Assembly (NCBI GenBank): GCA_934090795.1 | Contig: CAKOJQ010000002.1 | Span: 13,250 to 77,249, forward strand | DNA from: an uncultured Bacilli bacterium | Lineage (GTDB): Bacteria > Bacillota_I > Bacilli_A > RF39 > UBA660 | Length of the DNA: 64,000 bases | Reading direction: 5' to 3' | Shown: one piece after another, positions 842 to 16,786 of the stretch | How positions within the stretch are numbered: the stretch's first letter is position 1 | Layout: the number at the start of each line of letters is the position of its first letter | Program-made: the position numbers and the translations under genes | The notes under the pieces: generated by a model | Told to the model about the DNA's origin: nothing | Seen by the model: the letters and a program-made list of their open reading frames with translations, nothing else | The model's database searches: none

Positions 842-905
842 AAATAATTAATAGATATGAATATAATAGGTGTTAATTTTATGTAATTTTGGGGGAATTA
901 TAAAA

Positions 906-2762
906 ATGAAAAAAGAGGATTTAATAGAGTTAAAGAAAAAAATAATAGAATTATCTAATAAAGAAAAAAAAGAAAGAGATATTTATTTAAGAGATATTGC
1001 TACTGATAAAATTTTAGGACCACAACTTGGATATCCTGAAATTGATAAACCATGGTTGCAATATTATGATTTAAATAAAAGCATAAATCATATAGATATG
1101 ACTGTATATGAATCATTAGTTTATCATAATCAAAATCATTTAAGTGAAGAAGCAATAGAATATTTTGGTGCAAAAATTTCATATAAAAAATTATTTAACA
1201 TGATAGAATCTGTTGCTAAATCTTTCAAATATAATGGAGTAAAAAAAGGAGATTTTGTTACAATTTGTTCTCCTGGTATTCCTGAAACGGTTTATAGTTT
1301 TTATGCACTATCTAAGCTTGGAGCAGTTGCTAATATGGTTGCACCATATTTTGATAAGCAAGACTTTGTAGATAGAATTTCTGATTGTAATAGTAAAATA
1401 TTAATTGTGATGGATAGTTTTTATGATGAAATAAAAGAGGCTGTTAATAAATCAATTATAGAAAAAATTATTATAGTTCCTACTTTAAATTCATCACCTT
1501 TAGGTTTAATTGGTAAAAGAGTTAAAGTAAATAAGAATAATAATGAAGTTTTATGGAATAATTTTCTAAATGAAGGTAAAAAAATAGAAGATTTAGAAAT
1601 AGTTTCATATGAAAAAGATCTACCTTTAGTAATGGTATATTCTAGTGGTACTACGGGTTCTTCAAAGGGAATTCTTTTAACTAATGATAGTTTTCAAAAT
1701 TCAGTAAGTGCTTATTTTAATTCGGGTTTAGATATTCATAGAAATCAAAAATTTTATCAAATTATACCAACATGGTATTCTACGGGGATTAGCACATCAG
1801 TACATTTACCACTTAATTGTGGCGCTACTGTTTTTATGGATCCTAGATTTGAAAGGAAAATTTTTATTAAAAATGTTTTAAAGGCAAGGCCTAATTATGC
1901 GGTTGCACCTACAAGTATGTATGAAGGATTTCTTGATAATCCTTGTTTGAAAAAACATGATCTATCTTATTTTACTAATGCATTTGAAGGTGGAGAGCCT
2001 CTTAGTGAAGAATTAGCAACTAGAATTAATAATGTATTTGAGGAACATAACAATAATTCTAGTATTAAAGTAGGATATGGACAATGTGAGTGTGGGGCAA
2101 CAATAACAACGCAAAATAATTTAACTGATCATTGCAATGGCTCTGTTGGTGTTCCGTTACCAGGAATTAATATTCGAATTTGTGATGATAATATGAATTC
2201 ATTACTATTTGGTGAAAGGGGACAAATTCTAGTTGATACTAAATCTAGCATGATTGGTTATTTTGCAAATAGAGAAGAAACAGATAAATATTTTTATATA
2301 GATGAAAATGGGCATAAATGGAATTGTACTGGTGATATCGGCTATATTGATGCAAAAGGAAATTTATTTGTTCAAGGTCGTGCATCAGACTACACTATTG
2401 TAAATGGTGAGAAATTTTATAATTTTGATATTGAAAATATTATTAAACAAGTTGATGGTGTAAAATTATGTGATGTTTTACATAGAAATATTAATGATAA
2501 GCAAGAATTTGTTGTACATTTGATTTTAGAAGACAATTTAGAAAATACCAATCATTATGATATTTTTAAAAGAATTCAAGATGCTGTTTATCAAGAAACA
2601 CATAATTTGAATATGGTTCCTAATGTATTTAAAGTAAGAAGTGAATTTCCTTATGCTAAATCTGGAAAAAGAGATATAGGAAAAATGATGAACGAAACTG
2701 ATGGTTTTTTAGAATTAAAGTTTGATGCTGCTAAAAATAAATATTTGCTAAAAAGAAAATAA
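906..2762 (+). CDS. AMP-dependent synthetase/ligase (acyl-CoA synthetase family)
   Basis: AMP-binding signature YSSGTTGSSKG and hinge motif GDIGYIDAKGNLFVQGRASD. A GGGGGA RBS lies ~9 nt before the ATG at 906; the track ORF starts at the upstream GTG 870. Confidence 0.85.
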   Translation: MKKEDLIELKKKIIELSNKEKKERDIYLRDIATDKILGPQLGYPEIDKPWLQYYDLNKSINHIDMTVYESLVYHNQNHLSEEAIEYFGAKISYKKLFNMIESVAKSFKYNGVKKGDFVTICSPGIPETVYSFYALSKLGAVANMVAPYFDKQDFVDRISDCNSKILIVMDSFYDEIKEAVNKSIIEKIIIVPTLNSSPLGLIGKRVKVNKNNNEVLWNNFLNEGKKIEDLEIVSYEKDLPLVMVYSSGTTGSSKGILLTNDSFQNSVSAYFNSGLDIHRNQKFYQIIPTWYSTGISTSVHLPLNCGATVFMDPRFERKIFIKNVLKARPNYAVAPTSMYEGFLDNPCLKKHDLSYFTNAFEGGEPLSEELATRINNVFEEHNNNSSIKVGYGQCECGATITTQNNLTDHCNGSVGVPLPGINIRICDDNMNSLLFGERGQILVDTKSSMIGYFANREETDKYFYIDENGHKWNCTGDIGYIDAKGNLFVQGRASDYTIVNGEKFYNFDIENIIKQVDGVKLCDVLHRNINDKQEFVVHLILEDNLENTNHYDIFKRIQDAVYQETHNLNMVPNVFKVRSEFPYAKSGKRDIGKMMNETDGFLELKFDAAKNKYLLKRK

Positions 2763-2821: not shown

Positions 2822-4618
2822 ATGACAAATAAAACATTATTAATAATTTTTAGTTTAATATATATGTTTGGATTAAATTTTTTATATTTTTCTAAAACAA
2901 GATTGAAAAATAAAGAAAATAAAGTATATAAAATAATGCTTATAGTTAACATTATAGGTTTGATTTTACAATTATTATGTGATTATGTGTCTTTTAAATA
3001 TGATATTGTTCCTAAAATAATATCTACAATAATTTATAAGTCGTATTTAGTTTACTTTATTGTATTTGTAAATTTAATGTTACTCTATTTAATAATTTTA
3101 GTGTTTAATAAATATGAAAGATTATTAATTAAGTGTGATACTGTAATAACTTTTATTGAATCATGGATTGTTTGTATGGCACCATATAGTTTATATAGAA
3201 ATGTTAAAACTAAAACGTATTATACATATGGTTTAGCTATTAACATATCATTTATATTTTCAGCTATTGTTTGTATATTTATGTTTGTTGTATTAATTGT
3301 GAATCATAAGAAAATATCCAAAACTAAGAGTATTCCAATATATTTATTAATTTTTTCAGGTCTTATTTCTGCTGCTATCCAACATACTTATCCTGATATT
3401 CTAATAATAACTTCTATGGAAAGTTGTATTTGTTTTTTAATGTATTTTACGATAGAAAATCCTGATTTAAAGATGTTAGAAGAGGTAACAAAGATTAAAG
3501 AAATAACAGAGAAAACTAATGAAGATAAATCATCATTTTTATATCATGTTACAGATGAAATGAATTTAGTATTAAATAATGTAAAAACTAAATTAAATAA
3601 CATAAATAAAATGAATGATATTAGTGAAATTAAACATAGTTTAAAAGAAATAGATGCAATAGTTGACAATAGTAAAAAAAGAGTAAATGCAACAATAAAT
3701 ATTTCAGAGATGGATTCTAAAGAATTAAAAGTAATAAATAATACTTATAATATAGTAAATTTATTAAATGGAATAGTAGCTTACAATAGAAATAAGATTA
3801 AGAAGAATATAGATTTTAGGCATGATGTAAGTAATACAATACCAGATATGTTATATGGTGATTCAATAAAAGTAAAACAAATTATAAATAGTGTCATAGA
3901 TAATTCAATAAAAAATACTAGTGAAGGATTTATAGAACTAAGAGTATCATGTATAGTAAAATATGATATATGTAGATTAATAATATCAGTAGAAGATTCA
4001 GGATCAGGAATAGATTTGGTAAAACAAAATAAGATATTAAGTGATAATTCTGAATTAAATGTAAATGAAATAAAAGGAAAAGATGATTTAATAGTAAATT
4101 TAAAGATAGTAAACAAATTAATTAATATGATAGGTGGAACATTATCAATTGAATCACTTAATAATAATGGAACAATAGTAAATATAACATTAGATCAAAA
4201 GATAGTACAAAGTGATGGAAGTACGTTAGATGAAAAATTAGATACATATAATAAATATATGAGTGATAAAAAAATTATAGGTATAATAAGTGAAAATAAA
4301 GATAATGTAAAAGTAATAAAACAAATTGGAAAGAAAAATAATTATAATGTAGAATCATTTGAAATGACTAAAACTTGTTTAGATAAAATAAGAGATGGGG
4401 AAGTATTTGACACAATTGTGATAGATGAAGATATGGATAAAATAGATGCTAGAAGTTTCTTAGATAAAGTAAGAAAAGTAGAGAGTTTTAAGGGAAAAGT
4501 ATTTGTTATAACGAAGAAAAAGAGTATTCAGTTAAAGAAAGAATTAAAAGATTATGGCTTTGATGCTATATTAATTGAGCCTTTAAATAAAAAAGATGTA
4601 GAGGTTAATTTTAAATAA
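2822..4618 (+). CDS. Membrane-bound hybrid sensor histidine kinase with degenerate H-box, G2-box and receiver
   Basis: ~6-7 N-terminal TM helices. DHp-like segment KSSFLYHVTDEMNLVLNN, then HATPase_c (GDSIKVKQIINSVIDNSIKNT, EDSGSGID) and a C-terminal REC-like domain (TIVIDEDMD, VFVITKK). GGTGAA RBS. Confidence 0.8.
   Translation: MTNKTLLIIFSLIYMFGLNFLYFSKTRLKNKENKVYKIMLIVNIIGLILQLLCDYVSFKYDIVPKIISTIIYKSYLVYFIVFVNLMLLYLIILVFNKYERLLIKCDTVITFIESWIVCMAPYSLYRNVKTKTYYTYGLAINISFIFSAIVCIFMFVVLIVNHKKISKTKSIPIYLLIFSGLISAAIQHTYPDILIITSMESCICFLMYFTIENPDLKMLEEVTKIKEITEKTNEDKSSFLYHVTDEMNLVLNNVKTKLNNINKMNDISEIKHSLKEIDAIVDNSKKRVNATINISEMDSKELKVINNTYNIVNLLNGIVAYNRNKIKKNIDFRHDVSNTIPDMLYGDSIKVKQIINSVIDNSIKNTSEGFIELRVSCIVKYDICRLIISVEDSGSGIDLVKQNKILSDNSELNVNEIKGKDDLIVNLKIVNKLINMIGGTLSIESLNNNGTIVNITLDQKIVQSDGSTLDEKLDTYNKYMSDKKIIGIISENKDNVKVIKQIGKKNNYNVESFEMTKTCLDKIRDGEVFDTIVIDEDMDKIDARSFLDKVRKVESFKGKVFVITKKKSIQLKKELKDYGFDAILIEPLNKKDVEVNFK
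3778..4618. repeat. Direct repeat copy B, identical to 1..841
   Basis: See copy A. Identity ends exactly after the TAA stop: 842 is a, 4619 is t. Confidence 0.95.
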
Positions 4619-4739: not shown

Positions 4740-5492
4740 ATGAAAACCAAAATACAGGTATTTATTGTAGATGATAACAAAGAAGTTATCAATGAAGTAA
4801 AGAAGTATTTTAGTAGTAAGAATGTTGGTGTAGAAATAGTAGGATCTTGTTCTAATGGAGAAGATGCTTTAATTGAATTAAAAGAAAATTATGGTAGTTA
4901 TGATTTAGTTTTAATGGATTTAGTTATACCAAAGAGAGATGGACTTAGCGTCTTAGAAGAATTAAAGAAAGAAAATATAAATATTAAAAGTATAATTACT
5001 ACATGTATAAATTCAGTGGATATAATTAAAAAGTGTATGGATGTTGGGGTAAGTTATTATATGTTAAAACCATATAATTTAGATTCTTTAGCTGATATTA
5101 TTAAAAGAATTGTTAATAATCAAAATAAAATAAGAATTGATAATAAAGACTTACAACAAGCTATAACAAATTTATTACATTCACTTGGAATGCCTAGTCA
5201 TATTAAAGGTTATAGTTACATTAGAGATAGTATTAGTTTAATGTATAATAAACCTAGTATGTTAGGTGCTATTACAAAAGAATTATATCCGGAAATTGCT
5301 AGTATGTATGATACAACTTCATCAAGAGTTGAAAGAGCAATAAGACATGCAATTGAGGTTAGTTGGACTAGAGGAGATTATGAAGTAATGGAAGAAATAT
5401 TTGGTCACTCTGTTGATTATGATAGAGCAAAACCAACTAATTCAGAGTTCATAGCTACTTTAGCAGATAAATTAAGATTAGAAATACATTAA
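4740..5492 (+). CDS. spo0A: Sporulation master regulator Spo0A
   Basis: Receiver domain (IVDDNKEV, LVLMDLVIPKRDG) plus the Spo0A-specific C-terminal domain including SRVERAIRHAIEVSWTRG. AAGGAGAG RBS. Confidence 0.95.
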   Translation: MKTKIQVFIVDDNKEVINEVKKYFSSKNVGVEIVGSCSNGEDALIELKENYGSYDLVLMDLVIPKRDGLSVLEELKKENINIKSIITTCINSVDIIKKCMDVGVSYYMLKPYNLDSLADIIKRIVNNQNKIRIDNKDLQQAITNLLHSLGMPSHIKGYSYIRDSISLMYNKPSMLGAITKELYPEIASMYDTTSSRVERAIRHAIEVSWTRGDYEVMEEIFGHSVDYDRAKPTNSEFIATLADKLRLEIH

Positions 5493-5496
5493 TTAA

Positions 5497-5520
5497 GGAT
5501 AGCTTAGGCTGTTCTTTTTT
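5497..5520 (+). terminator. Rho-independent terminator after spo0A
   Basis: GGATAGC-ttag-GCTGTTC: a 7-bp stem including G-U pairs, followed by T6. Confidence 0.65.
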
Positions 5521-5573
5521 AGATAAAATTTTTTTATTTTTCGGAAAATCGCAAAATTTTGTTAAAAAAAGTA

Positions 5574-5601
5574 TTGACATAATAAATTTTAGTTGTAAAA
5601 T
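5574..5601 (+). promoter_or_regulatory. Sigma-A-type promoter of the small-ORF module (copy 1)
   Basis: TTGACA (5574..5579), 16-nt spacer, TAAAAT (5596..5601). Confidence 0.6.
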
Positions 5602-5632
5602 ATTGATTAAATTTATTTAAAGGAGAAAAGGT

Positions 5633-5749
5633 ATGGCTAAAGTATTTAAAGAAATTAATTTTATTATTTCTAAAAATATCAATGTTAAATACAATTGTGG
5701 TTTTAACTTTGGCTGCGCATGCCTTAATATTGAAAATAGTTGGCGTTAA
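5633..5749 (+). CDS. 38-aa small ORF MAKVFKEINFIISKNINVKYNCGFNFGCACLNIENSWR (leader peptide or small Cys-containing peptide)
   Basis: AGGAG RBS 7 nt upstream of the ATG, its own promoter and its own terminator. The second copy encodes the identical peptide, with one synonymous difference (Ile33 ATT/ATC). The ORF is below the size cutoff of the ORF track. Confidence 0.45.
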   Translation: MAKVFKEINFIISKNINVKYNCGFNFGCACLNIENSWR

Positions 5750-5781
5750 AGAGTGTTATTTTGCTCTTTGGCGTCTTTTTT
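5742..5781 (+). terminator. Strong rho-independent terminator overlapping the small-ORF stop codon
   Basis: GGCGTTAAAGAG-(10 nt loop)-CTCTTTGGCGTC followed by T6. The 5' arm contains the last codons TGG CGT TAA. Confidence 0.8.
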
Positions 5782-5797
5782 AATTGGGAGGTGTTTT

Positions 5798-7237
5798 ATG
5801 AAAAATATTACTATTGATGATTTGCTTGAAAAATTAAAGGAATACAATGCGGAGGAAGTAGAAATTGTTAATAAAGCATATAAATATGCAAAAAATTTAC
5901 ATGCAGGACAATTTCGGCAAAGCGGAGAACCTTATATAAATCATCCTCTTAATGTAGCATATATTTTATGTGAAATGCATGCTGATAGAGATACTATATG
6001 TGCTGGATTACTTCATGATACATTAGAAGATACTAATATAACAAAAGAAGATATTGCACATGACTTTAATCAAAATATTGCTAATTTAGTAGATGGAGTT
6101 ACAAAGTTATCTAAAATGAATTTTTCTTCTAAACAAGATCAAAATTATGCAAATACGAGAAAGATTATAACTGGTATAACTGATGATGTTAGAATTATTA
6201 TAATTAAACTTGCTGATAGACTTCATAATATGAGAACTTTAGAGTTTAAATCTGAATTTAAACAAAAGGAAAATTCACTTGAAACTATGGAAATATTTGT
6301 TCCTCTTGCTTATTATATAGGAGCTTATAGAATAAAGAGTGAGCTTGAAGATTTATCGTTAAAATATTTGAAACCTGATATGTATAAAACGATAGAAGAA
6401 AGGAAATTAAAAATTGAAGAATCTAGTAAAGATTGTTTAATGGAAATGTTAGGTAAAATAGAAACATTACTTAATGATAGAAATATTCCTAATGAGATAA
6501 AAGTTAGAACTAAAAATATTTATGGAATATATAAAAGATTAAATGAAGGGCATAAGATATCTGATATACATGATTTATTAGCACTTAAAATAATGGTAGA
6601 TGAAATATCGAATTGTTATTTGACTTTAGGATTAATACATAAAGAATATCATCCTATAAATGAGAAATTTAAAGATTATATTTGTAATCCTAAAACAAAT
6701 ATGTATAGAAGTTTACATACAACTGTGTTTGGACCGGATGAAAGAATTGTACAAACTCAAATAAGAACATTTGAGATGGATAGAGTAGCATCTTTTGGTC
6801 TTACTGCATATTGGGATGAACAAAAAGGAAGAGCAAGAGATGTAATGCAGGAAGATTTAAAACAAAAATTTCAATTCTTTAAATCTTTAATAGAAATTAA
6901 TTCTATGTTTGGGGATAACCAACAATTTGTTAATCAAGTAAAGAATGAATTATTTGCAGATAGAATTTATGTTTATACAACTAAAGGAGATATTATAGAA
7001 CTTCCAAAAGGGGCTACACCAATAGATTTTGCATATAAAATACATACTGATATAGGTAATACGATGGTTGGCGTATTTGTTAATGATGAATATGTACCAG
7101 TTGATTATGTTTTACATAATAAGGATAGAGTAAGAATAGTTACAGATGATTATTCTTTTGGGCCAAGAGAGGATTGGATTGAGAAAGCTCAAACTAGCCT
7201 GGCTAAAAAGAAAATAAGAGAGTTTAATAGGAGATAG
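5798..7237 (+). CDS. rel: RelA/SpoT-homologue (Rel), truncated after the TGS domain
   Basis: HD hydrolase motifs (GEPYINHPLNVA, HDTLEDT), synthetase-fold motifs (YRSLHTTV, QIRTFEM), TGS (GATPIDFAYKIHTDIGN). GGGAGG RBS 6 nt before the ATG at 5798; the track ORF starts at upstream GTG 5753, inside the terminator. Confidence 0.85.
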   Translation: MKNITIDDLLEKLKEYNAEEVEIVNKAYKYAKNLHAGQFRQSGEPYINHPLNVAYILCEMHADRDTICAGLLHDTLEDTNITKEDIAHDFNQNIANLVDGVTKLSKMNFSSKQDQNYANTRKIITGITDDVRIIIIKLADRLHNMRTLEFKSEFKQKENSLETMEIFVPLAYYIGAYRIKSELEDLSLKYLKPDMYKTIEERKLKIEESSKDCLMEMLGKIETLLNDRNIPNEIKVRTKNIYGIYKRLNEGHKISDIHDLLALKIMVDEISNCYLTLGLIHKEYHPINEKFKDYICNPKTNMYRSLHTTVFGPDERIVQTQIRTFEMDRVASFGLTAYWDEQKGRARDVMQEDLKQKFQFFKSLIEINSMFGDNQQFVNQVKNELFADRIYVYTTKGDIIELPKGATPIDFAYKIHTDIGNTMVGVFVNDEYVPVDYVLHNKDRVRIVTDDYSFGPREDWIEKAQTSLAKKKIREFNRR

Positions 7238-7246
7238 GAGAAAAAT

Positions 7247-8908
7247 ATGAATTTAAAAGATTATTTTGGATATTGTGATGATAACAATTTTGATATTGTT
7301 TCAAGATATATGAGAGAATTAAATATAGATTTAGAGCAAGTATATAATTTTAATTATCCTTTTTTTAAGGGAAATTATGAAAGAAATTTTGGAAATTTTT
7401 TGCAAAATAAAAAATTGAATTATGATTCCATGTCACCTAGTGATATTTTTAAGTATATTGCACCTTATTTTGAAAATATACCTAATTGGAATAATCCTGG
7501 TACTATGATAAACGTAATTCCACCAGTAAATTTAACATCTCTTGCTGTAACAAATATTGCAAATATGTATAATCCAAATTTTGCTCAAGATACTTATTCC
7601 GGTATGTTAATTACTTCTGAGTTGGAGGTATCTAAATATATAAGTGATTTAGTTGGATGGAATTATAAAAAATCGCATGGAACATTTACTTTTGGTGGTA
7701 AGGGAACAAATCTTTATGCTACAAAAGTTGCTTTAAATAAAGTTGATAAAAAAAGTACCGTTAATGGATTGGAAAGAAATAAATACTTTATGATAACTAG
7801 TAAAAATGGACATCCTTGTCATTATGAGGTTTGTAATTGGTTAGGAATAGGAACTTCTAATTGTTATGAAATAGAGTGTAATAAAGACGGCAAAATAAAT
7901 TTGGCATTTGTTGAAAAAATAATCGACGAAAATATAAAGAAAGGAAAATTATTTCTAGGATATAATTTAACTGCTGGTAGTACTAATGAACTTTTAGTTG
8001 ATGATATTAAAAAAATCTTTTATTTGAATAAAAAAATTGTAAAAAAATATAATTTAAGTTATATTCCTCACATTCATGCAGATGCAGTTTTGGGATGGGT
8101 TTACTTGTTTTTTAATACATATGATTTTGAAACTAATCCCTTGTGTATTGATGAAATTTCATTAAAAAAAATAAAAAGTTTAAATAAAAAAATTCAAGAA
8201 TTAAAATATGTAGATTCGATTGGCGTTGATTTTCATAAAACAGGGTTTTGTCCATATACATCAAGTATTATTTTATTTAAAAATAAAGATGATTATTTTA
8301 CACTTTGTGAAAATGACAATGTAGAATTAGATGACATTTGTTATGGAAATTATAATCCTTATCATTCTACATTGGAATTAACAAGACCGTCAATTGGGCC
8401 TGTAAGTGCTTTATGTTCATTAAAATCATTGGGTATATCTGGTTTTCAAAAAATAGTTGCGAATATGTTTAGCTGTTCAGAATATTTTAGGAAAAAGCTA
8501 TGTGAAAATCCTAAAATAAGCTTAATAAATGGTGAAACAGAAGGAATAGCTTCTTTATTTATAATTAAGCCTTTAAAATATAAAGAATTTGATATAAAAA
8601 AAGTAAAAAAATATTCAAATATAGAAATAGATGAGATAAAAAATTATAATATAAATTATGGAAAATATATTTTAAAAAAATCTATCAAAAATGAAATACA
8701 TTTTATTTTCACATCTTCAAGAAGTTATAAATTACCTGGCACAGAAATTAAAATAGGTGCACTTAAAACATACCCTATGTCTGTATATATGACTTTTGAT
8801 AAAGTAGATGAAATTATAAATGAAATAAATGCATCTATTGATAGCTATGAACAAGAAAAAATTAGTGACGAAAAACTAGAATTAGATGATAATATGGTGT
8901 ATAGATAA
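7247..8908 (+). CDS. PLP-dependent group II decarboxylase-like protein
   Basis: GGKGTNLYATK, HADAVLGW and DFHKTG (putative PLP-lysine) motifs. TAGGAG RBS. Starts 10 nt after the rel stop. Confidence 0.65.
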   Translation: MNLKDYFGYCDDNNFDIVSRYMRELNIDLEQVYNFNYPFFKGNYERNFGNFLQNKKLNYDSMSPSDIFKYIAPYFENIPNWNNPGTMINVIPPVNLTSLAVTNIANMYNPNFAQDTYSGMLITSELEVSKYISDLVGWNYKKSHGTFTFGGKGTNLYATKVALNKVDKKSTVNGLERNKYFMITSKNGHPCHYEVCNWLGIGTSNCYEIECNKDGKINLAFVEKIIDENIKKGKLFLGYNLTAGSTNELLVDDIKKIFYLNKKIVKKYNLSYIPHIHADAVLGWVYLFFNTYDFETNPLCIDEISLKKIKSLNKKIQELKYVDSIGVDFHKTGFCPYTSSIILFKNKDDYFTLCENDNVELDDICYGNYNPYHSTLELTRPSIGPVSALCSLKSLGISGFQKIVANMFSCSEYFRKKLCENPKISLINGETEGIASLFIIKPLKYKEFDIKKVKKYSNIEIDEIKNYNINYGKYILKKSIKNEIHFIFTSSRSYKLPGTEIKIGALKTYPMSVYMTFDKVDEIINEINASIDSYEQEKISDEKLELDDNMVYR

Positions 8909-8937
8909 AATGATAATTAATAAAAAGGATGATTAAT

Positions 8938-9759
8938 ATGGAAATAGAACAATTTAATGATGAAATACAAATAGTTAAACAATTATTAGATTCGTTAACA
9001 TCATTTAAATATGATTCAATAACTTTATATGGATCGGCATATAATAAAGAAACTTTTGAAAAAGATTTATCTGATATTGATATAATTGTAATGTCAAAAA
9101 AATTTAATGATTATAATCTTAATAGTATTGTTAACGAACTTAAAATAAAAAATATAAACTTTAGAGAAAAGTCTCCAAAAATTATAATTGATAATCTCTG
9201 CGCAAGAATTGAATTTTATGTCAAATTTGAAAAAATAAGTATTGATGTAACATTATGCGGAGGATTAATTCCAAATATTGATGAATTAATAAAAAATGCT
9301 TGGTATGATAGTTTTGAAGCATTAATGGGTGGAGTATATATTTATTCAAAAACTATTTATGGAATGATTCCGGATTATGAATTATTTAAGGAAAAATATT
9401 ATCCTTTTTATAATGATGAATTAAGAAAAAAAAGGTTAAAAATTTTATGTGAAAAATTAGAAATTTACAATAAAAAAATAGAGTATAATTACAATATTAA
9501 AAGTACTGAAACTATTGATATGTTAATAAAAGCAAGAAAATATTTTATTAAAATCCTATTTATATATTATAAAAAATATTATTGGTCACCTGAAAAACAT
9601 ATATATTATCAATTAAATAATTTTTTAAATCTTGATGAAGAAACTAAAAAAATATTAACATTTTCATGTGGAGATATATTTGAATGTTCAAAAAAGTATT
9701 TAAATGTATCAAAAATGTATTTATCTTTGATCAAAAAGGAAATTTTAGATAATTTTTAA
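8938..9759 (+). CDS. Nucleotidyltransferase-domain protein
   Basis: Minimal NTase motif LYGSAYN...LSDIDIIVMS. AAGGA RBS favours the ATG at 8938 over 8929. Confidence 0.55.
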   Translation: MEIEQFNDEIQIVKQLLDSLTSFKYDSITLYGSAYNKETFEKDLSDIDIIVMSKKFNDYNLNSIVNELKIKNINFREKSPKIIIDNLCARIEFYVKFEKISIDVTLCGGLIPNIDELIKNAWYDSFEALMGGVYIYSKTIYGMIPDYELFKEKYYPFYNDELRKKRLKILCEKLEIYNKKIEYNYNIKSTETIDMLIKARKYFIKILFIYYKKYYWSPEKHIYYQLNNFLNLDEETKKILTFSCGDIFECSKKYLNVSKMYLSLIKKEILDNF

Positions 9760-9829: not shown

Positions 9830-9871
9830 AAAATCATTAGATGAAATGCAATTACGAAGGAGTTGATTGTT

Positions 9872-12295
9872 ATGTACAATTTTAAAGAAGTAGAGGAAAA
9901 ATGGGAAAAGAGATGGGATGAAGAAAAAAGTTTTAAAGCTATAGATTTTCATCCAACTAAGCCTAAATATTATGTGTTATATGAATTTTTTAATATAAGT
10001 GGAAATTTACATATGGGTCATTTAAAAGGTTCTGTTCCAGCGGATGCACTTGCTAGAATGAAAAGATTTCAAGGTTATAATGTCTTATTCCCAATAGGTG
10101 GTGATTCTTTTGGTTTACCTGCTGAAAATGCGGCAATTAAAACAGGAATAGATCCTAAAATATTTGTTACTAATGGAATGAAAAATGTTCTTGCTCAATC
10201 TAAAAGAATTGGTTTGTCATTTGATTATGATAGAGTGTTTGCAACTAGTGATGAAGATTATTATAAATGGACACAATGGATATTTTTACAATTTTTTAAA
10301 AATGGCAAAGCATATAAAAAGAAAGGCGTTGTAAACTTTTGTCCTAATTGTAAGACCGTACTTTCTAATGAAGATTCTCAAGGTGGAATTTGTGATAGAT
10401 GCCATGGCAAAGTAATTCAAGATGAAAGATGGGTATGGTTCTTAAAGATGAGAGAATACTCTGAAAAACTTCTTGGTAATGTTGATAGAATTAATATGAA
10501 TGAGAACTTGAAAGAACTTCAAAGAAATTGGATAGGTAAGAGTGAAGGATTAAAAGTATCATTTGAAATAGTTGATGAAAAAAATAATAAATTAACTGAT
10601 GCTGAAATATTTACTACTTGTCCTGAAACTATATATGGAATTACATTTATGGTTATGGCTCCTGAACATGAATTAATTAGTAAGTTAAAAGATAATATTA
10701 AAAATTATGAAGAAGTTAAAAAATATCAAGAAGAAACAAGATACAGAAGTGAACTTGATCGAATTAGTAATCAAAAAGAAAAGACTGGATGTATATTAGA
10801 TGGATTATATGCAATTAATCCAGTTAATGGAAGAAAAGTTCCAATTTATATTGCTGATTTTGTTTTAGCAGGATATGGTACGGGAATGGTTATGGCTGTT
10901 CCTACTCATGATCAAAGAGATTATGAATTTGCTAAAGAATTTAATATTCCAATGATTCAAGTCATAGAAGGCGATGTAAGTAATAACTCAGTTGAAAAGA
11001 TGGAATATTTAAATAATAATTATAAGATGATGAACTCTGATGAATTTAGTGGTTTACCGGTTAAAGAAGCTAAAGAAAAGATTGTTGATAAATTAGTAAA
11101 TACTCATGTTGGTGAAAAAGTTGTTAATTACAAAATGCAAGATTGGTCATTCAATAGACAAAGATACTGGGGAGAACCGTTCCCAATCGTATTCTGTGAT
11201 AAATGTGGAACTGTTCCAGTACCTGAAGAAGAATTGCCTGTTAGATTACCACAAACTGATGATTATATGGCAAGAGAAGATGGTGCATCTCCTTTATCTA
11301 AAATAGAAGATTGGGTAAATTGTAAATGTCCTAAGTGTGGCGGACCAGCAAAAAGAGAAACTGATACAATGCCTAACTGGGCTGGATCAAGTTGGTACTG
11401 GCTTAGATATTGTGATCCTAAAAATAATGAGAAATTAGCAGATTTTGATAAACTTAAGTATTGGGGAAGTGTTGATTGCTATACAGGTGGTACTGAACAT
11501 ATAACTAGACATGTACTATATGCATTCTTCTGGCAAAACTTCTTGTATGAAATAGGTGCTGTACCTTCAAGAGATCCATTCATAAGAAAAATGGGTAGTG
11601 GTTTAATTTTAGATGATACTGGAAAGAAAATGAGTAAGAGTTCTGCTAATGGTGTATCTCCTATGGAAGTTATTGATAAATATGGCTCAGATGTAGCAAG
11701 ACTTCATGTTCATTTCTTAGGTGGTTATGAAGATAATATAGCTTGGACATATGATGGAATAAATGGAATAGTTAACTTTATTAATAAAGTATGGGATTTA
11801 CAAAATATTGTAAAAGAAGATGAAGAATTATCAAGTGAACAAGAATATGACTTAAATTCACTTATTAAAAAAGTAACTGAAGATTTAGAAGATTTAAAAT
11901 TAAATACATCTATTGCAGCTTGCATGAGTTATCTTAAAAAAGTTAAGGAACGTGGATATATTACTAAGAGAGAATTAAAATCATTCTTAATTGTATTAAA
12001 CCCACTTGCACCTCATATAACTAGTGAGTTATTTGAAATCGTATTTAATAAAAATATAATTGAAGAATTATGGCCAAAATATGAAGAAAATAAATTAGTA
12101 AAAAACACCTTTAATTTAGTTGTTCAAGTTAATGGTAAGATTAGAGGAAAAATAGAAGTTACAACAGATACTCCAGAAGAAGAAATGTTTGAACTTGCTA
12201 AGTCTATTGATAATGTTAAAACATTTATAGATAATAAAGAAATAGTTAAAGTTATAACTGTTCCTAGGAAGTTAGTTAATATTGTTGTTAAATGA
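9872..12295 (+). CDS. leuS: Leucyl-tRNA synthetase
   Basis: HMGH (HIGH variant), KMSKS, CP1/editing region and Zn-finger-like CxxC pairs. GAAGGAG RBS. TGA stop. Confidence 0.95.
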   Translation: MYNFKEVEEKWEKRWDEEKSFKAIDFHPTKPKYYVLYEFFNISGNLHMGHLKGSVPADALARMKRFQGYNVLFPIGGDSFGLPAENAAIKTGIDPKIFVTNGMKNVLAQSKRIGLSFDYDRVFATSDEDYYKWTQWIFLQFFKNGKAYKKKGVVNFCPNCKTVLSNEDSQGGICDRCHGKVIQDERWVWFLKMREYSEKLLGNVDRINMNENLKELQRNWIGKSEGLKVSFEIVDEKNNKLTDAEIFTTCPETIYGITFMVMAPEHELISKLKDNIKNYEEVKKYQEETRYRSELDRISNQKEKTGCILDGLYAINPVNGRKVPIYIADFVLAGYGTGMVMAVPTHDQRDYEFAKEFNIPMIQVIEGDVSNNSVEKMEYLNNNYKMMNSDEFSGLPVKEAKEKIVDKLVNTHVGEKVVNYKMQDWSFNRQRYWGEPFPIVFCDKCGTVPVPEEELPVRLPQTDDYMAREDGASPLSKIEDWVNCKCPKCGGPAKRETDTMPNWAGSSWYWLRYCDPKNNEKLADFDKLKYWGSVDCYTGGTEHITRHVLYAFFWQNFLYEIGAVPSRDPFIRKMGSGLILDDTGKKMSKSSANGVSPMEVIDKYGSDVARLHVHFLGGYEDNIAWTYDGINGIVNFINKVWDLQNIVKEDEELSSEQEYDLNSLIKKVTEDLEDLKLNTSIAACMSYLKKVKERGYITKRELKSFLIVLNPLAPHITSELFEIVFNKNIIEELWPKYEENKLVKNTFNLVVQVNGKIRGKIEVTTDTPEEEMFELAKSIDNVKTFIDNKEIVKVITVPRKLVNIVVK

Positions 12296-12308
12296 GTATA
12301 ATAATTAA

Positions 12309-12332
12309 GGATAGCTTTGGCTGTTCTTTTTT
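12309..12332 (+). terminator. Rho-independent terminator after leuS
   Basis: Same hairpin as 5497..5520, with one loop substitution, plus a T-tract. Confidence 0.65.
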
Positions 12333-12385
12333 AGATAAAATCTTTTTATTTTTCGGAAAATCGCAAAATTTTGTTAAAAAAAGTA

Positions 12386-12413
12386 TTGACATAATAAATT
12401 TTAGTTGTAAAAT
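12386..12413 (+). promoter_or_regulatory. Sigma-A-type promoter of the small-ORF module (copy 2)
   Basis: TTGACA-16-TAAAAT, identical to copy 1. Confidence 0.6.
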
Positions 12414-12444
12414 ATTGATTAAATTTATTTAAAGGAGAAAAGGT

Positions 12445-12561
12445 ATGGCTAAAGTATTTAAAGAAATTAATTTTATTATTTCTAAAAATATCAATGTTAA
12501 ATACAATTGTGGTTTTAACTTTGGCTGCGCATGCCTTAATATCGAAAATAGTTGGCGTTAA
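12445..12561 (+). CDS. 38-aa small ORF, second copy (identical peptide)
   Basis: Same RBS and frame as copy 1. The only difference is synonymous: ATC instead of ATT at codon 33. Confidence 0.45.
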   Translation: MAKVFKEINFIISKNINVKYNCGFNFGCACLNIENSWR

Positions 12562-12592
12562 AGAGTGCTATTTTGCTCTTTGACGCCTTTTT
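12554..12592 (+). terminator. Strong terminator of module copy 2
   Basis: GGCGTTAAAGAG...CTCTTTGACGCC plus T5. Two 3'-arm substitutions relative to copy 1 turn wobble pairs into Watson-Crick pairs. Confidence 0.8.
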
Positions 12593-12677
12593 AATAAATG
12601 TATATCATAATTCATGCTCTATAAACAAAGAATTAGTATTATTTATAAAAAGTTTACAATAAAATAATTTTTTAATT

Positions 12678-12899
12678 TTGCTGATTTCATCTTCAAATAA
12701 GGAAAAAGTTAATAATGATTTAAAAAATATATCAGAATATATTTTATTTGATGAAATTTATACAAAAGAAAATTTTGAAAATTTTGATTTTGAAACAATT
12801 GAATGTTTTGATGGTGGACCGTATATTGAAAAAGATAATCAAGATAATTTTGCTTTTTATAAACAAACTTATTATATTGGAAAGAGAAAGGAAAGATAA
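12678..12899 (+). CDS. Hypothetical 73-aa ORF, possibly a gene remnant
   Basis: TTG start, no recognisable RBS, no internal Met. Ends 2 nt before the next gene. Weak support. Confidence 0.2.
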   Translation: MLISSSNKEKVNNDLKNISEYILFDEIYTKENFENFDFETIECFDGGPYIEKDNQDNFAFYKQTYYIGKRKER

Positions 12900-12901
12900 A
12901 A

Positions 12902-13561
12902 ATGAAAAATATAATATTATTAAGTGGGCCAGATAAAACAAAATATTTTAATGATGAAATTGTAAAAATAATTAAAGAAAATGCTAATAATCCTATTAAT
13001 ATGGTAGTTATACCAGCAGATTCTAATAATTATGTTAAAAATGATAGACAATTTAATGGTAATGAAACTGTAGTAGGAGTTTATAAAACTTTTAAAGAAA
13101 TATTTTCTGATTTAAATATTTCTTTATTAGATAACAGAGTTAATTTAGAGGACGGAATAAATAGTTTGAAAAATGCAGATATTATATATCTTCTTGGAGG
13201 AAATCCATTTATTCAATTAGAATACTTGAAAAAAAATAAATTTGATGATGTAATACGGAATACTTCTGCATTAGTTATTGGTGTAAGTGCCGGTTCAATG
13301 AATTTAGCAACAAATTCATATTATTCTAAAGATGAAGATTATCCAGAAAGTATAATTTATAAAGGATTAGGACTAACTGATATAACTATTGATCCGCACT
13401 TTGATATCAATAATGAAGAACAGGTAATTGAAATAAGAAAAAATTCAAAAGATATTAAAATTATTGGATTGCCAAATGATTCTGCAATAGTTATTTCAAA
13501 TAATGATATTAAATATATAGGAGATGTATATATTTTTGAAAATGGAAATTTGAATAGTTAA
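12902..13561 (+). CDS. Peptidase S51 (dipeptidase E / PepE-like), paralogue 1
   Basis: LLGGNPF, GVSAGSMNL (nucleophile Ser), IDPHFD and IIGLPNDS motifs, as in PepE. Confidence 0.8.
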   Translation: MKNIILLSGPDKTKYFNDEIVKIIKENANNPINMVVIPADSNNYVKNDRQFNGNETVVGVYKTFKEIFSDLNISLLDNRVNLEDGINSLKNADIIYLLGGNPFIQLEYLKKNKFDDVIRNTSALVIGVSAGSMNLATNSYYSKDEDYPESIIYKGLGLTDITIDPHFDINNEEQVIEIRKNSKDIKIIGLPNDSAIVISNNDIKYIGDVYIFENGNLNS

Positions 13562-13926
13562 AGAATATTAAATTGATTATCAAAAAAGAATTATTATAAA
13601 TAGTGTTCTTAATTGTAATGTAAGTTATCTGTCTATATTTATACAAACAAGAATTTTTTGGAAAATTGTTATTATCTTTTTTGTTGATACACTAAAGTAT
13701 AATTGTCCTCTACATGGTGGATTTGTACTAAGATTGGATAGATTAACAATGTTAATTACATGGACTGGTAATATTTGCGACGAAATTATATTTTTATAGT
13801 ATAAATTATTACATAACATGTTAGATGAAAGAAATATTCACAATTCAAAATTTGAAAGTATTGGTGACAAAATTAATGTTGGGTGTGGTCAAATGGCTGC
13901 TAATAAATTAGAGAGGATAAAGAAAA

Positions 13927-14610
13927 ATGTATAGTGTTTTATTTAGTAGAATTGAAATAGGAATGGATTTAGTTAGTGATAAATTAAAACAAATAATTCC
14001 AAATAATTCAAAAGTTGCGATTTTTCCTTGGGCATTTCCTGTTGAAATAGATGCTCAAAAATTGGATAATGAATTTTTTAAAAAAGGAGAAAAAAGATAT
14101 AATAGATATATAAATGAACTAAAAAAGATAGGCATAAATGAGAATGATATAACTGTGTGCAATTGTTATAGTGATTCAAAGGAAAAATTAAAAGAAATTA
14201 TAAAAAATTCTAATGTTATATTGTTACCTGGTGGTAATCCTGAAATGTTTTTTGGTAAAGTTGTTCATGATACGGAGATTCTTTATGATATAAAGCATTA
14301 TAAAGGAATTATAATTGGTGAAAGTGCTGGAACAGAATTACAATTAAAAAGATATTTTATAACAGCAAAAAATAATTTTTATAAGTATTTTTCATTTTAT
14401 GATGGTTTTGGAGTAATTGATGATCCGTTTTATATTGATGTACATACAATAAATAATTTAAGATATTTATCTAAATTACAAAAAGTTGCAAATGAAAAGG
14501 ATAAAAACGTCTATGCAATATATGATGATGGTGCAATGATTTATAATAGGGATACTGGAGAAATTGAGCTATTTGGTAATGTTAGAACTTTTAAACCAGA
14601 AAATAAGTAA
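13927..14610 (+). CDS. Peptidase S51 family, paralogue 2
   Basis: LPGGNPE and IIGESAGTEL motifs. GAGAGG RBS. Confidence 0.7.
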   Translation: MYSVLFSRIEIGMDLVSDKLKQIIPNNSKVAIFPWAFPVEIDAQKLDNEFFKKGEKRYNRYINELKKIGINENDITVCNCYSDSKEKLKEIIKNSNVILLPGGNPEMFFGKVVHDTEILYDIKHYKGIIIGESAGTELQLKRYFITAKNNFYKYFSFYDGFGVIDDPFYIDVHTINNLRYLSKLQKVANEKDKNVYAIYDDGAMIYNRDTGEIELFGNVRTFKPENK

Positions 14611-14649
14611 AATAGTGTTTTATAATGATTGTATTATTTGTGAGGAAAA

Positions 14650-15207
14650 ATGATAACAATAAAATTAATTGAAACATTAAAAACTAATAGATTAAATTTA
14701 AGAAGATTCTGTATTGATGATGCTGAAACATTATTTAATAATTGGGGAACTGATAAAGAAATTAGTAAATATATGTTATGGAAAAATTAAAAAACAGTAG
14801 ATGATACTATAAATAGCATTAACTATTATATTGAATGTTATGAAAATAATTCTAATTTTAGACAATATGCAATTGAATTAAATGATACAAATGAGTTAAT
14901 TGGCCAGATAAGTTTTACTATTAGCAAAAAACATGAAAGTGCTGAAATAGCATATTTAATTGCTCGACCATATCAAAATAAAGGGCTTATGAAAGAAGCA
15001 TTAAACACTATTATAGATTATTTAATTAATGGTCTAAATTGTACTAGAATAAGTGCTGAAGTTATGATTGAAAATATTTCTAGTATCAAATTATTAGAAA
15101 AAAATGGATTTGTACAAGAAGGAATTGAAAGATTAAAATATAAGAAAAAAGATGGAAAGTTTACTGATATAATTGTAATGAGTTTAATAGATGATAAGAG
15201 ATTATAA
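14650..15207 (+). pseudogene. GNAT (RimJ/RimL-type) N-acetyltransferase interrupted by an in-frame TAA
   Basis: One continuous frame: MITIKLIETLKTNRLNLRRF...LWKN*KTVDDT...QNKGLMKEALNTIIDYL...LLEKNGF. The TAA at 14788..14790 is the only interruption. The track shows only the 3' part (14989..15207). Confidence 0.7.
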
Positions 15208-15276
15208 TTTTATGAAATATAGAATTAAAATTTCTTATTTTCTTTATTGATTATTAAAATGAAATGAGGAATGATT

Positions 15277-16059
15277 ATGGTTAAAAAATTAATTGCAATT
15301 GGTGGCGGAGAAAATGGAAGATTACTGGAAGATGGAACTAAGTCTAAATATGAAACAAGATTAATGGATGAAGAAATTATTAGATTAACTAATAAGAAAA
15401 ATCCAAATTATTTGTTTATTGTTCATGCTATGAGTTTTTCGGAAGAAATAGAAGATAGTTATTATAATACTATGAAAAAAATTTATGGTGATATGTTTGG
15501 ATGTAATTGTAAATGTTTGAAAGCAAAAGATTTAACTAATAAAGATTATGTTAAAGAGTTAGTTGATTGGGCTGATATAATTTATGAAGGCGTTGGAGAC
15601 ACTAGGTTGATGTTAGATTTATGGAAAAAAACTGACTTTGATAAATTATTAAAAGATGCATGGTATAATGGCAAAGTTATTTGTGGAATATCAGCTGGTG
15701 CTGTTTGTTGGTTTAATTCATGTAATTCGGATACGGAATATGGTGGATTTGAAAGTATAAATTGTTTAGATTGGTTTGATTTATATGTTACACCACATGC
15801 TGATGAAGATGGAAGATATGAATCCAGTAAAAATCAGCTTAAGGATAATAAAAAAATAGGAATAATGCTTTCTAATTGTTCGGCTATAGAAATAATTGAC
15901 GATGATTATAGAATTATTTCGGAAAATGGTAATGAAAGAAATTTTGACAAAGGTTATGCTTTAAAATGTTTTTGGAAGGATAACAAATTTAATGAAATAA
16001 AACTAGATGATAGTAATGAATTTAAAAAAATAAGTGATTTATGTGAATTAGATATTTAA
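15277..16059 (+). CDS. Peptidase S51 family, paralogue 3 (divergent)
   Basis: IAIGGGENG and ICGISAGAVCW motifs. GAGGA RBS 6 nt before the ATG at 15277. Confidence 0.7.
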   Translation: MVKKLIAIGGGENGRLLEDGTKSKYETRLMDEEIIRLTNKKNPNYLFIVHAMSFSEEIEDSYYNTMKKIYGDMFGCNCKCLKAKDLTNKDYVKELVDWADIIYEGVGDTRLMLDLWKKTDFDKLLKDAWYNGKVICGISAGAVCWFNSCNSDTEYGGFESINCLDWFDLYVTPHADEDGRYESSKNQLKDNKKIGIMLSNCSAIEIIDDDYRIISENGNERNFDKGYALKCFWKDNKFNEIKLDDSNEFKKISDLCELDI

Positions 16060-16081
16060 AAATAAGGAGATGTTTTAAATT

Positions 16082-16762
16082 ATGAAGTTATTCTTATGTG
16101 GTGGCGGAAGTGGTAAACAAGTAATTGATGCTTATAAAGAATTTGAAAAATGTATTGATAAAAATAAACCTATTTTATATATACCACTAGCTATGGATGA
16201 AGAAAAATATAATAGTTGTTATGAATGGTTTAGCGAGGAAATTAAAAATTTTGGTGGTATGAAATTTGATATGGTTAGAAATTCTTTAGAGTTATCTAAT
16301 AAAGATTTTAATAAATATGCTGCTATATTTATAGGTGGTGGTAATACATTCAAATTATTAAAAGATTTAAAGGAACATTCTAATTGGGATAAAATTATAA
16401 ACTATTTAAATAATGATGGAGTTATTTTTGCTGGAAGTGCTGGTGCTATTGTATTTGGTAAGGATATAAATAGTGCTTTAATTGATGATGGAAATGATGT
16501 AAATATATGTGATTTAAGTGGATTTGATTATTTAAAAGATTATTCTATTTTGTGTCATTTAAAAGAATCTCATTTTAATAAAAATGAAGAATATTTAAAA
16601 AGGTATTCTAAAAAATTTAAAACTATATATATGCCAGAAGAAGATGTTATATTAATTTCTAATAATGAAATTAAAATGATAGGTAATAAGGATATCGTTA
16701 TATTTGATAATGATAAATATTGTTGGTGCACTTGTAAAGAATTTGAAATAATTTTTAAATAA
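16082..16762 (+). CDS. Peptidase S51 family, paralogue 4
   Basis: LFLCGGGSG, FIGGGNTFKLL and FAGSAGAIVFG motifs. Confidence 0.75.
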   Translation: MKLFLCGGGSGKQVIDAYKEFEKCIDKNKPILYIPLAMDEEKYNSCYEWFSEEIKNFGGMKFDMVRNSLELSNKDFNKYAAIFIGGGNTFKLLKDLKEHSNWDKIINYLNNDGVIFAGSAGAIVFGKDINSALIDDGNDVNICDLSGFDYLKDYSILCHLKESHFNKNEEYLKRYSKKFKTIYMPEEDVILISNNEIKMIGNKDIVIFDNDKYCWCTCKEFEIIFK

Positions 16763-16786
16763 TAAATATGTGTTAGGTGATAGATT

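Follow-up and report, generated by a model that had tools for sequence, protein, structure and literature searches.

The stretch of DNA analyzed here, referred to as the window, comprises 64,000 nt from an uncultured Bacilli bacterium and contains one RelA/SpoT-type (p)ppGpp synthetase/hydrolase gene, rel; a second such gene was looked for in the window and not found. Directly upstream of rel lies a module that includes a promoter, a short open reading frame (ORF) and an intrinsic terminator, and a nearly identical copy of this module is found behind leuS. We consider it probable that the module is a leader of rel carrying a ribosome-dependent transcription attenuator of the pyrBI type, which has been duplicated by a strain-specific rearrangement, with copy 1 controlling rel and copy 2 left as an orphan.

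As can be seen in Table 1, copy 1 begins with the terminator of spo0A (T1) and continues with a promoter, a Shine-Dalgarno (SD) sequence and a 38-codon leader ORF containing three Cys codons. The stop codon of this ORF (5747-5749) lies inside the 5′ arm of a second intrinsic terminator, T2, the predicted attenuator, which is followed by the SD and start codon of rel. A consensus scan of the + strand between 5602 and 5798 found no promoter match of at least 9/12, the leader promoter being the only one upstream of rel. Since there is no promoter match between the terminator and rel, the gene is predicted to be transcribable only by read-through of T2. At -43 kcal/mol (z = -3.2), the minimum free energy (MFE) structure of the leader in the window includes two helices, P1, which involves the leader start codon, and P2, a hairpin within the ORF. 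The Rfam check that a preliminary description of this DNA had proposed gave nothing relevant at the module: in Rfam 15, only two tRNAs reached the gathering score in the whole window, and a search of 5400-5900 at E <= 10 gave nothing better than E = 5. The 38-aa product matched zero families in Pfam and NCBIfam at E <= 0.01.

The same architecture is found upstream of rel in related species. A scan of a genome collection with Rel yielded 80 loci from metagenome-assembled genomes (MAGs), with Rel identities of 70-99% and record titles such as uncultured Bacilli, uncultured Tenericutes, Mycoplasma sp. CAG:472 and CAG:611, which we take to belong to the GTDB order RF39. The sequences compared in this work all come from MAG or metagenome contigs. 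The 330 nt that precede each rel start were read and show a recurring order: TTGACA...TAAAAT and an A/T-rich AAATTTATTT stretch come first, then a GGAGG-type SD with its ATG and a short ORF, and lastly a strong hairpin plus T-tract, with GGAGGTG leading to the start of rel. An automated call identified an SD-led leader ORF in 67/72 rel loci, with a GGAG-type SD 5-13 nt before the ATG, and the ORF is clear by eye in L030, L048, L063 and L082. No leader was found upstream of rel in L080 and L090. The leader promoter region is likewise conserved upstream of rel in other species, and terminators were detected in 42/44 of the leaders tested (43 representatives and window copy 1), the one in the window ending ~20 nt before the rel start codon. 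The comparison with related genomes, which had also been proposed in the preliminary description, thus places the module upstream of rel in relatives and not among random dispersed duplicates. As judged from these loci, the module is the transcriptional leader of rel, neither a mobile element nor a free-standing gene. That description had presented it as a unit behind two housekeeping genes; NCBIfam and Pfam confirm the identity of both (spo0A and leuS), and what we see is the 5′ leader of rel rather than an autonomous module.

While the leader ORF is kept open, the peptide that it encodes is not conserved. The leader ORFs measure 18-55 codons (median 38), at a composition for which a stop is expected every ~11 codons; the probability of finding no stop in 38 codons is 0.023 per lineage, for 43 non-redundant lineages. 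In the two alternative frames of these ORFs, 151 and 231 stops occur. The leader peptides of different groups are unalignable, an exhaustive phmmer search of 1.84 billion representative proteins matched the window peptide only to its own cluster (P0001, 95% identical), and tblastn against 90 loci gave matches within the same species alone. Relative to L020, two loci (L028 and L088) display a compensated frameshift, in which one nt is deleted from the A-run that follows the ATG and one nt is inserted into a later A-run; this rewrites the first 14 residues from MKKRFYNGIIRFNQK to MKKDSIMELLDLIKK and restores the frame before the conserved core. The ORF of L011, a locus whose Rel is 99% identical, shows K6E, Y20C, C22Y and W37stop versus one synonymous change; its Cys count is kept, Cys22 having moved to position 20, and its new stop is still in the terminator arm. 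These patterns of turnover fit a leader peptide, not a functional protein. Taken together, the sequence comparisons show that selection keeps the predicted leader ORF open and Cys-rich and places its end in or at the terminator. An AgrD-like precursor, a ribosomally synthesized and post-translationally modified peptide or SCIFF-like precursor, and a type I toxin were considered as identities for the product and dropped; partner genes were not found, the peptide is unconserved and the frame turns over.

To place the stop codon relative to the terminator, single hairpins were searched for with RNAfold, using the T-tract as anchor. In 42/42 leaders, the first base of the stop codon falls in the range from -12 nt to the 3′ end of the terminator hairpin, at a median of +10 nt from the 5′ base of the hairpin (10th-90th percentile, -5 to +23). 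In L048, one of the rel paralogues of a complete circular MAG (OZ007038.1), the leader, ~160 nt upstream of position 4001, has an ORF that meets no stop ahead of the terminator and continues through it into the start region of rel, in a different frame. The complementarity of upstream sequences to the terminator 5′ arm is no better than in shuffles (mean z = 0.0 for 42 leaders), and the best upstream duplex has a median of -6.5 kcal/mol, against -15 kcal/mol for the terminators. Only 3/42 leaders have a z below -2. The window copy is among them, since its ACTTTGGC (5706-5713) can pair with the terminator 5′ arm at -9.9 kcal/mol (z = -2.3). There is no predicted antiterminator that is conserved across the leaders.

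The leader ORFs are rich in Cys codons. Across 43 non-redundant leaders, with the long ORFs of the same loci as background, Cys makes up 7.55% of the residues versus 1.30% (5.8-fold, binomial p = 2e-51), and TGY triplets account for the same 7.55% in frame versus 1.9% and 4.6% in the other two frames of the leaders. TGC represents 54% of leader Cys codons, compared with 18% in genes. At least one Cys is present in 40/43 leaders, at least three in 20 and a tandem CC in 15. Among the other residues, F, N and S are mildly enriched, and D, E, P, Q, G and H are depleted. A YAUGC motif, the UGC of which is an in-frame Cys codon in the window, occurs in 22/43 leaders; when one motif Cys per leader is removed, the Cys share is 6.15%, still to be compared with 1.30% in the background.

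This motif also participates in P1, in which the leader start region, (A)G[U/C]AUG(A), pairs with a conserved (U)CAUG[C/U](U) motif. The CAUG of several divergent groups is located +85 nt from the ATG, in the same frame, with its UGC forming a Cys codon. RNAalifold gave no consensus pairs on a 27-sequence MAFFT alignment of whole leaders, which are too divergent, and because this consensus was empty the helices were tested explicitly, by pair counts and with a covariance model. In the unfitted MAFFT alignment of the 27 leaders (P1, P2 and terminator), 82.4% of the cells are paired versus 27-50% when the partners are slid by 1-3 columns, the covariation score is 0.373 versus <=0.14 slid, and 0/500 column shuffles reach the observed values. 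A model-fitted alignment, which leans toward the structure of the model, gives 88.7% paired versus 23-46% slid and a covariation of 0.346 versus <=0.138. Across species, 4-5 of the 7 pairs of P2 have undergone compensatory exchanges (G-C/A-U and U-A/C-G), and the conserved hairpin is followed by U-rich sequence, while P1 varies at its three outer pairs around a fixed AUG:CAU core. The covariation analysis suggested in the preliminary description has thus been carried out on homologous leaders, and two RNA helices covary. A covariance model of SD, P1 and P2 (R1) has 32 matches at E <= 1 in 705 kb searched on both strands. Thirty of these are directly upstream of rel homologues, including loci outside the seed, two are the window copies (copy 2 scoring 92.7 bits), and none is found elsewhere in these 705 kb at that threshold.

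How such a leader could operate is suggested by the position of its parts. A strong sigma-A-type promoter would start a transcript of ~175 nt with a well-placed SD and a short ORF running into the 5′ arm of the terminator, so that rel would be made by read-through only. A ribosome that initiates before P1 closes over the AUG, and that stays close behind RNA polymerase, would cover the terminator 5′ arm; with the 3′ arm and U-tract being synthesized while the 5′ arm is covered, the hairpin could not form and rel would be transcribed. If the leader were untranslated or the ribosome lagged, the terminator would form. The former would occur when P1 pairs the AUG with the CAUGC 85 nt downstream, and the latter when the ribosome waits at the enriched, mostly rare UGC Cys codons. 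P2 and the U-rich tract are a candidate RNA polymerase pause, which would let the ribosome catch up. The direction of control and the signal are what we infer here, the sign of the response being drawn from geometry only, and this is the weakest step. There is precedent for the central step in that a ribosome at a stop codon a few nucleotides from an intrinsic terminator suppresses termination; in one experiment, moving the stop from 28 to 5 nt reduced termination from ~90% to <10%, and classic amino-acid attenuators avoid this suppression by keeping >20 nt between stop and terminator (PMC4824070). Closest in mechanism, by analogy, would be the Escherichia coli pyrBI attenuator. There too a short translated leader ORF runs into, or right across, an intrinsic terminator that immediately precedes the structural gene, the terminator thus lying within the leader ORF, there is no antiterminator, and read-through needs a ribosome close behind polymerase (PMC4824070), which for the rel leaders is suggested by the geometry of 42/42 leaders. 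The two differ in that pyrBI senses uridine triphosphate via polymerase pausing at U-tracts, whereas the rel leaders are enriched in Cys codons, possess in addition a helix, P1, that would sequester the start codon, would control rel rather than a nucleotide biosynthesis operon, and belong to a low-GC Bacillota host.

Several points weigh against this proposal. Terminators that abut stop codons are common at ordinary genes in this DNA (T1 starts 3 nt after the spo0A stop), and a stop codon in a terminator is by itself no proof of regulation because ordinary genes show the same geometry. Part of the Cys signal may reflect constraint on the RNA, namely the YAUGC motif. P1 is short and its core is set by the start codon, so that its covariation depends on 2-3 flanking pairs. 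In some Firmicutes the ribosome is outrun by RNA polymerase, in which case a pause would be required for coupling. In 17/40 leaders, <=8 codons separate the last Cys codon from the stop; should a ribosome stall at that point, its presence could be enough to mask the 5′ arm of the terminator and produce the opposite response, read-through on starvation. A physiological link between Cys-tRNA and rel is also not obvious.

The second copy of the leader led us to the history of the locus. A repeat search of the window aligned 5485-5780 with 12297-12592, a repeat of 296 nt that is 97% identical at a constant offset of 6812, which agrees with the two colinear copies noted in the preliminary description and which, within 64 kb of 24% GC DNA, is far beyond chance. 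Independent assemblies from four samples (L001-L006) show the two-copy arrangement as well, which rules out an artefact of assembly. Consensus scans recover the anatomy that the copies had been said to share, that is, a terminator, promoter, SD, 38-codon ORF and terminator, every element being found in both. Base by base, the copies are identical from 5490/12302 (TAATTAAGG...) on to the T-tract after the second hairpin, apart from the six substitutions (Table 1) and the single difference in T-tract length (6 T in copy 1, 5 T in copy 2) that had been counted by eye. The pattern described for these substitutions is borne out for the synonymous change in Ile33, for 5507 and 5756 at loops and for the 3′-arm changes that keep their pairs, and breaks down at 5530, which sits in a spacer and not in a loop. 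As a sign of constraint, six substitutions are weak evidence alone, and the ORF of L011 has four amino-acid changes including a premature stop. The proposal of a functional, recently copied unit nonetheless proves sound, the copies marking the junctions of a strain-polymorphic rearrangement and the architecture, not the sequence, being conserved in ~70 other species. It is this maintenance of architecture without maintenance of sequence in ~70 other species, rather than the six substitutions, that constitutes the evidence for a predicted function.

Comparison of strains distinguishes three types of locus, in which M stands for the module. In type A (the window and L001-L006, from four samples), the order is spo0A-M-rel-decarboxylase-NTase-leuS-M-73aa-S51..., NTase being the nucleotidyltransferase-like gene. 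Type B (L007, L008, L010 and the species representative L011) has one M, in the order spo0A-T1-leuS-M-rel-.... Type C (L009) reads (rel 3′ end)-decarboxylase-NTase-leuS-M-rel-DUF402..., with a second rel upstream. Because the loci are so arranged, leuS-M and M-rel are both ancestral adjacencies. On this gene order, the window is an ancestral leuS-M-rel unit that has been split, with M at both junctions, by what looks like a strain-specific segmental duplication or rearrangement. We infer that a type C-like intermediate, with M-rel twice, gave rise to type A when the second rel was lost and to type B through loss of the first M-rel-decarboxylase-NTase block, an ordering for which it should be kept in mind that metagenome contigs may be chimeric at repeats. 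Single-copy strains carry a 36-nt T1 hairpin after both spo0A and leuS, the two being 94% identical (L007:3304-3339, L010:221-256, L011:1138-1173). As T1 alone is also present behind spo0A in type B, the left breakpoint lies in an already repeated terminator, and T1 may have been the recombination site for the larger duplication. Many metagenome contigs from the human gut (142 index blocks) encode exactly the 38-aa peptide of the window.

Alignment of all copies of M identifies ATT at Ile33 of copy 1 as the derived state. Copy 2 is set apart by three terminator changes, one at the loop edge (5756) and two in the 3′ arm (5771 and 5774), of which the change at 5774 is common to L009; its terminator is the stronger one because the two 3′-arm changes make wobble pairs Watson-Crick. 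This copy retains the promoter, the ORF, P1, P2 and the strengthened terminator, and what follows it in place of rel is a 73-aa ORF with S51 peptidase genes, which type B strains lack. It is most simply an orphan by-product of the rearrangement. It may also terminate leuS and provide the downstream genes with an attenuated promoter. The G>A change in copy 2 creates a TTGACG which, with a TATCAT 17 nt downstream, scores 10/12 as a promoter (12580-12608, a consensus match only), so that the terminator of the orphan may at the same time supply the -35 element of a promoter for the 73-aa ORF and the S51 peptidase genes.

Other explanations can be weighed on the same evidence. An attenuator of the trp/his type, in which stalling at Cys codons frees an antiterminator and turns rel on when Cys-tRNA is short, would make sense of the enriched and often tandem Cys codons with their preference for the rare TGC, and of the -9.9 kcal/mol pairing of ACTTTGGC with the terminator 5′ arm in the window; attenuators with Cys codons in an upstream ORF (uORF) exist elsewhere (10.1101/834739; PMC8632094). 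We nevertheless regard it as rather unlikely, given that no antiterminator is found family-wide, that the stop codon is inside the terminator and not >20 nt upstream as in classic attenuators (PMC4824070), and that the regulated gene is not one for Cys biosynthesis or charging. Alternatively, the ORF could be incidental to a structured cis-regulatory RNA (a riboswitch or a protein-binding leader) or to a trans-acting small RNA released at the terminator. The two covarying helices, the conserved YAUGC motif and the fold z-score would all suit such an RNA, and the terminated leaders of other attenuators are reported to be able to act in trans (10.1101/606483). This too is improbable: an ORF with its SD is kept in ~68/72 lineages despite sequence turnover, the frame is preserved at the conserved core, only 14 pairs are conserved, with little conserved unpaired sequence for a ligand pocket, and Rfam gives no match. 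A role in trans could, however, coexist with attenuation.

Very improbable, in our judgment, is a genuine small-protein gene (for a Cys-rich micropeptide, toxin or signaling-peptide precursor) that merely sits beside rel with its own promoter and terminator. The strong promoter, the SD, the terminator and an ORF that is conserved as an ORF, with a Cys-rich and hydrophobic composition, are what such a gene would display. Its product, however, would have to be one that is unalignable between lineages, that has no homologue among 1.84 billion representatives beyond its own cluster, that tolerates a frameshift rewriting 14 residues and, in the closest relative, four nonsynonymous changes including a nonsense mutation versus one synonymous change. 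Genes for maturation, export or immunity were not found nearby, and the terminator of such a gene would leave rel without a promoter of its own. A mobile or selfish repeat resembling a miniature inverted-repeat transposable element (MITE), or a functionless random dispersed duplicate, is scarcely credible. It might be entertained for two near-identical copies 6.8 kb apart, in a window that also holds an exact 841-nt repeat. Like the preliminary description, which had rejected an insertion sequence or MITE, we found no terminal inverted repeats, target duplication or nearby transposase; the flanks differ, the only two copies are both at junctions of one rearranged locus, single-copy strains carry the module between leuS and rel, and homologous leaders occur upstream of rel in ~70 other species and nowhere else in 705 kb.

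A pyrBI-like attenuator upstream of rel would share features with other known systems. As in the trp, his and leu attenuators, there is an SD, a short ORF enriched in codons for one amino acid, an intrinsic terminator and a leader hairpin that is a possible pause site; in contrast to these, the rel leaders have no conserved 2:3 antiterminator, their stop is inside the terminator, and their target is outside the pathway of the enriched amino acid. Pairing in trpL can sequester the initiation region of the leader itself, to which P1 may be likened. Clustered Cys codons in short ORFs upstream of regulated genes are also a property of the mycobacterial polycysteine ORFs and of the Rhodobacterales cysS uORF, which are ribosome-stalling sensors (10.1101/834739; PMC8632094). 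The mycobacterial ORFs, however, are leaderless, act translationally by unmasking a downstream ribosome-binding site and control cysteine metabolism genes (10.1101/834739), and the cysS uORF controls a Cys-tRNA ligase gene (PMC8632094), whereas the rel leader has an SD-led ORF overlapping a transcription terminator, with rel as target. Ribosome-dependent, pausing-dependent attenuation at Gram-positive translation-stress genes is known for vmlR and bmrCD (PMC9226507, PMC4191407) and for the hflX uORF (PMC8632094). These differ in having very short uORFs, an antiterminator/anti-antiterminator switch and no Cys enrichment, and none is reported for rel. No leader-ORF attenuator for rel or relA was found in the full-text literature searched, which is an incomplete library, and the design seems not to have been previously described.

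The genes of the window around the two copies were assigned with NCBIfam and Pfam (Table 1). The rel product aligns with TIGR00691 at 525 bits over profile positions 1-449 of 687. In every related species sampled Rel is ~479 aa long, with HD, synthetase and TGS domains and without the C-terminal domains of long RelA/SpoT homologues, which are ribosome-binding. In several MAGs rel is present as two paralogues, both of which are preceded by a leader of their own (e.g., L018/L023 and L042/L048). There is no association between leader loss and full-length Rel, which is ~479 aa at all loci including the two leaderless ones. The clear spo0A is unexpected in a genome of 24% GC with relatives that were deposited under the names "Tenericutes" or "Mycoplasma sp. 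CAG"; this lineage is usually regarded as reduced and nonsporulating.

Two further repeats were seen in the neighborhood. Segments 1-841 and 3778-4618 form an 841-nt repeat that is 100% identical and covers the 3′ ends (ATPase and receiver domains) of the two hybrid histidine-kinase genes flanking the AMP-binding enzyme gene, the identity stopping exactly at both stop codons. In strain L006, the two 841-nt segments match the window repeat at only ~98%, which suggests a recent gene conversion in the strain of the window, or an assembly collapse. Downstream of copy 2, 12902-17437 contains five or six S51 (PepE/cyanophycinase-like) peptidase paralogues with acetyltransferase gene fragments in between. 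This cluster has an internal 70-nt repeat, 79% identical (13267-13336 vs 17155-17224), and its gene content varies between strains.

Table 1. Coordinates of the leader copies, their differences and the genes around them (window positions unless a locus is named)
Feature	Position	Strand	Basis or remark
T1, terminator hairpin and T-tract of spo0A, left end of copy 1	5495..5522	+	Terminator scan; hairpin + T-tract match 5495-5516
Leader promoter, TTGACA-16-TAAAAT	5574..5601	+	Consensus scan, 11/12
SD of leader ORF, AAGGAG	5620..5625	+	Read from sequence
P1 5′ strand, AAGGUAUG	5628..5635	+	Includes leader start codon; pairs with 5718-5725 in MFE fold
Leader ORF, 38 codons, MAKVFKEINFIISKNINVKYNCGFNFGCACLNIENSWR	5633..5749	+	Cys codons 5696-5698, 5714-5716, 5720-5722
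P2 hairpin within ORF (GUUAAA...UUUAAC)	5684..5707	+	MFE fold; 5684-5689 with 5702-5707
P1 3′ strand, CAUGCCUU	5718..5725	+	Conserved YAUGC motif; its UGC is an in-frame Cys codon
T2, intrinsic terminator (predicted attenuator)	5742..5781	+	Hairpin 5742-5775; 14-pair stem, 6-nt loop, T6; dG -16.6 kcal/mol
SD of rel, GGGAGGTG	5786-5793	+	T2 T-tract ends 5 nt before
Copy 2 T1′, terminator of leuS	12307..12334	+	Terminator scan; hairpin + T-tract 12307-12328
Copy 2 leader promoter, TTGACA-16-TAAAAT	12386..12413	+	Consensus scan
Copy 2 leader ORF	12445..12561	+	Identical peptide
Copy 2 terminator	12554..12592	+	Hairpin 12554-12587; 14-pair; two wobble pairs now Watson-Crick
Substitution A>T	5507		Loop, first hairpin
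Substitution T>C	5530		T-rich spacer, outside any hairpin
Substitution T>C	5731		Synonymous, Ile33 ATT/ATC
Substitution T>C	5756		First loop base, second hairpin
Substitution G>A	5771		3′ arm of second hairpin; U.G to U-A
Substitution T>C	5774		3′ arm of second hairpin; G.U to G-C
Hybrid histidine kinase	...-841		
AMP-binding enzyme	870-2762		
Hybrid histidine kinase	2822-4618		
spo0A	4740-5492		TIGR02875, 259 bits, cutoff 200
Module copy 1	5490-5781		
rel (RelA/SpoT homologue)	5798-7237	+	479 aa; HD, synthetase, TGS; Pfam HD_4, RelA_SpoT, TGS
Pyridoxal phosphate (PLP) decarboxylase	7247-8908		
Nucleotidyltransferase-like gene	8929-9759		
leuS	9863-12295		
Module copy 2	12302-12592		
73-aa ORF	12678-12899		
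S51 peptidase paralogues	12902 onwards		
Compensated frameshift, reference	L020:3776-3908		
Compensated frameshift, shifted	L028:1964-2096, L088:3778-3910		

Regulation of the stringent factor normally acts on the protein, through uncharged tRNA on the ribosome, and the C-terminal domains of Rel dock the enzyme on starved ribosomes. In this reduced-genome gut lineage, a C-terminally truncated Rel is combined with a conserved leader predicted to be translated, which is Cys-rich and has its stop inside the terminator that precedes rel. It is conceivable, though doubtful, that the sensing of starvation has moved from the Rel protein, whose C-terminal domains are lost, to the mRNA leader, in which a pioneer ribosome on the Cys-rich ORF would set the level of the alarmone enzyme. 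If true, this would be a cis-encoded, translation-reading switch of the stringent response in very common, uncultured human gut bacteria. The locus also illustrates how a local rearrangement can leave a regulatory leader behind as an orphan promoter-terminator cassette. If confirmed, the rel leaders would represent a new regulatory input into (p)ppGpp metabolism and a natural family of pyrBI-like, antiterminator-free attenuators in Bacillota, with ~40 independent sequence variants for mutational and covariation analysis.

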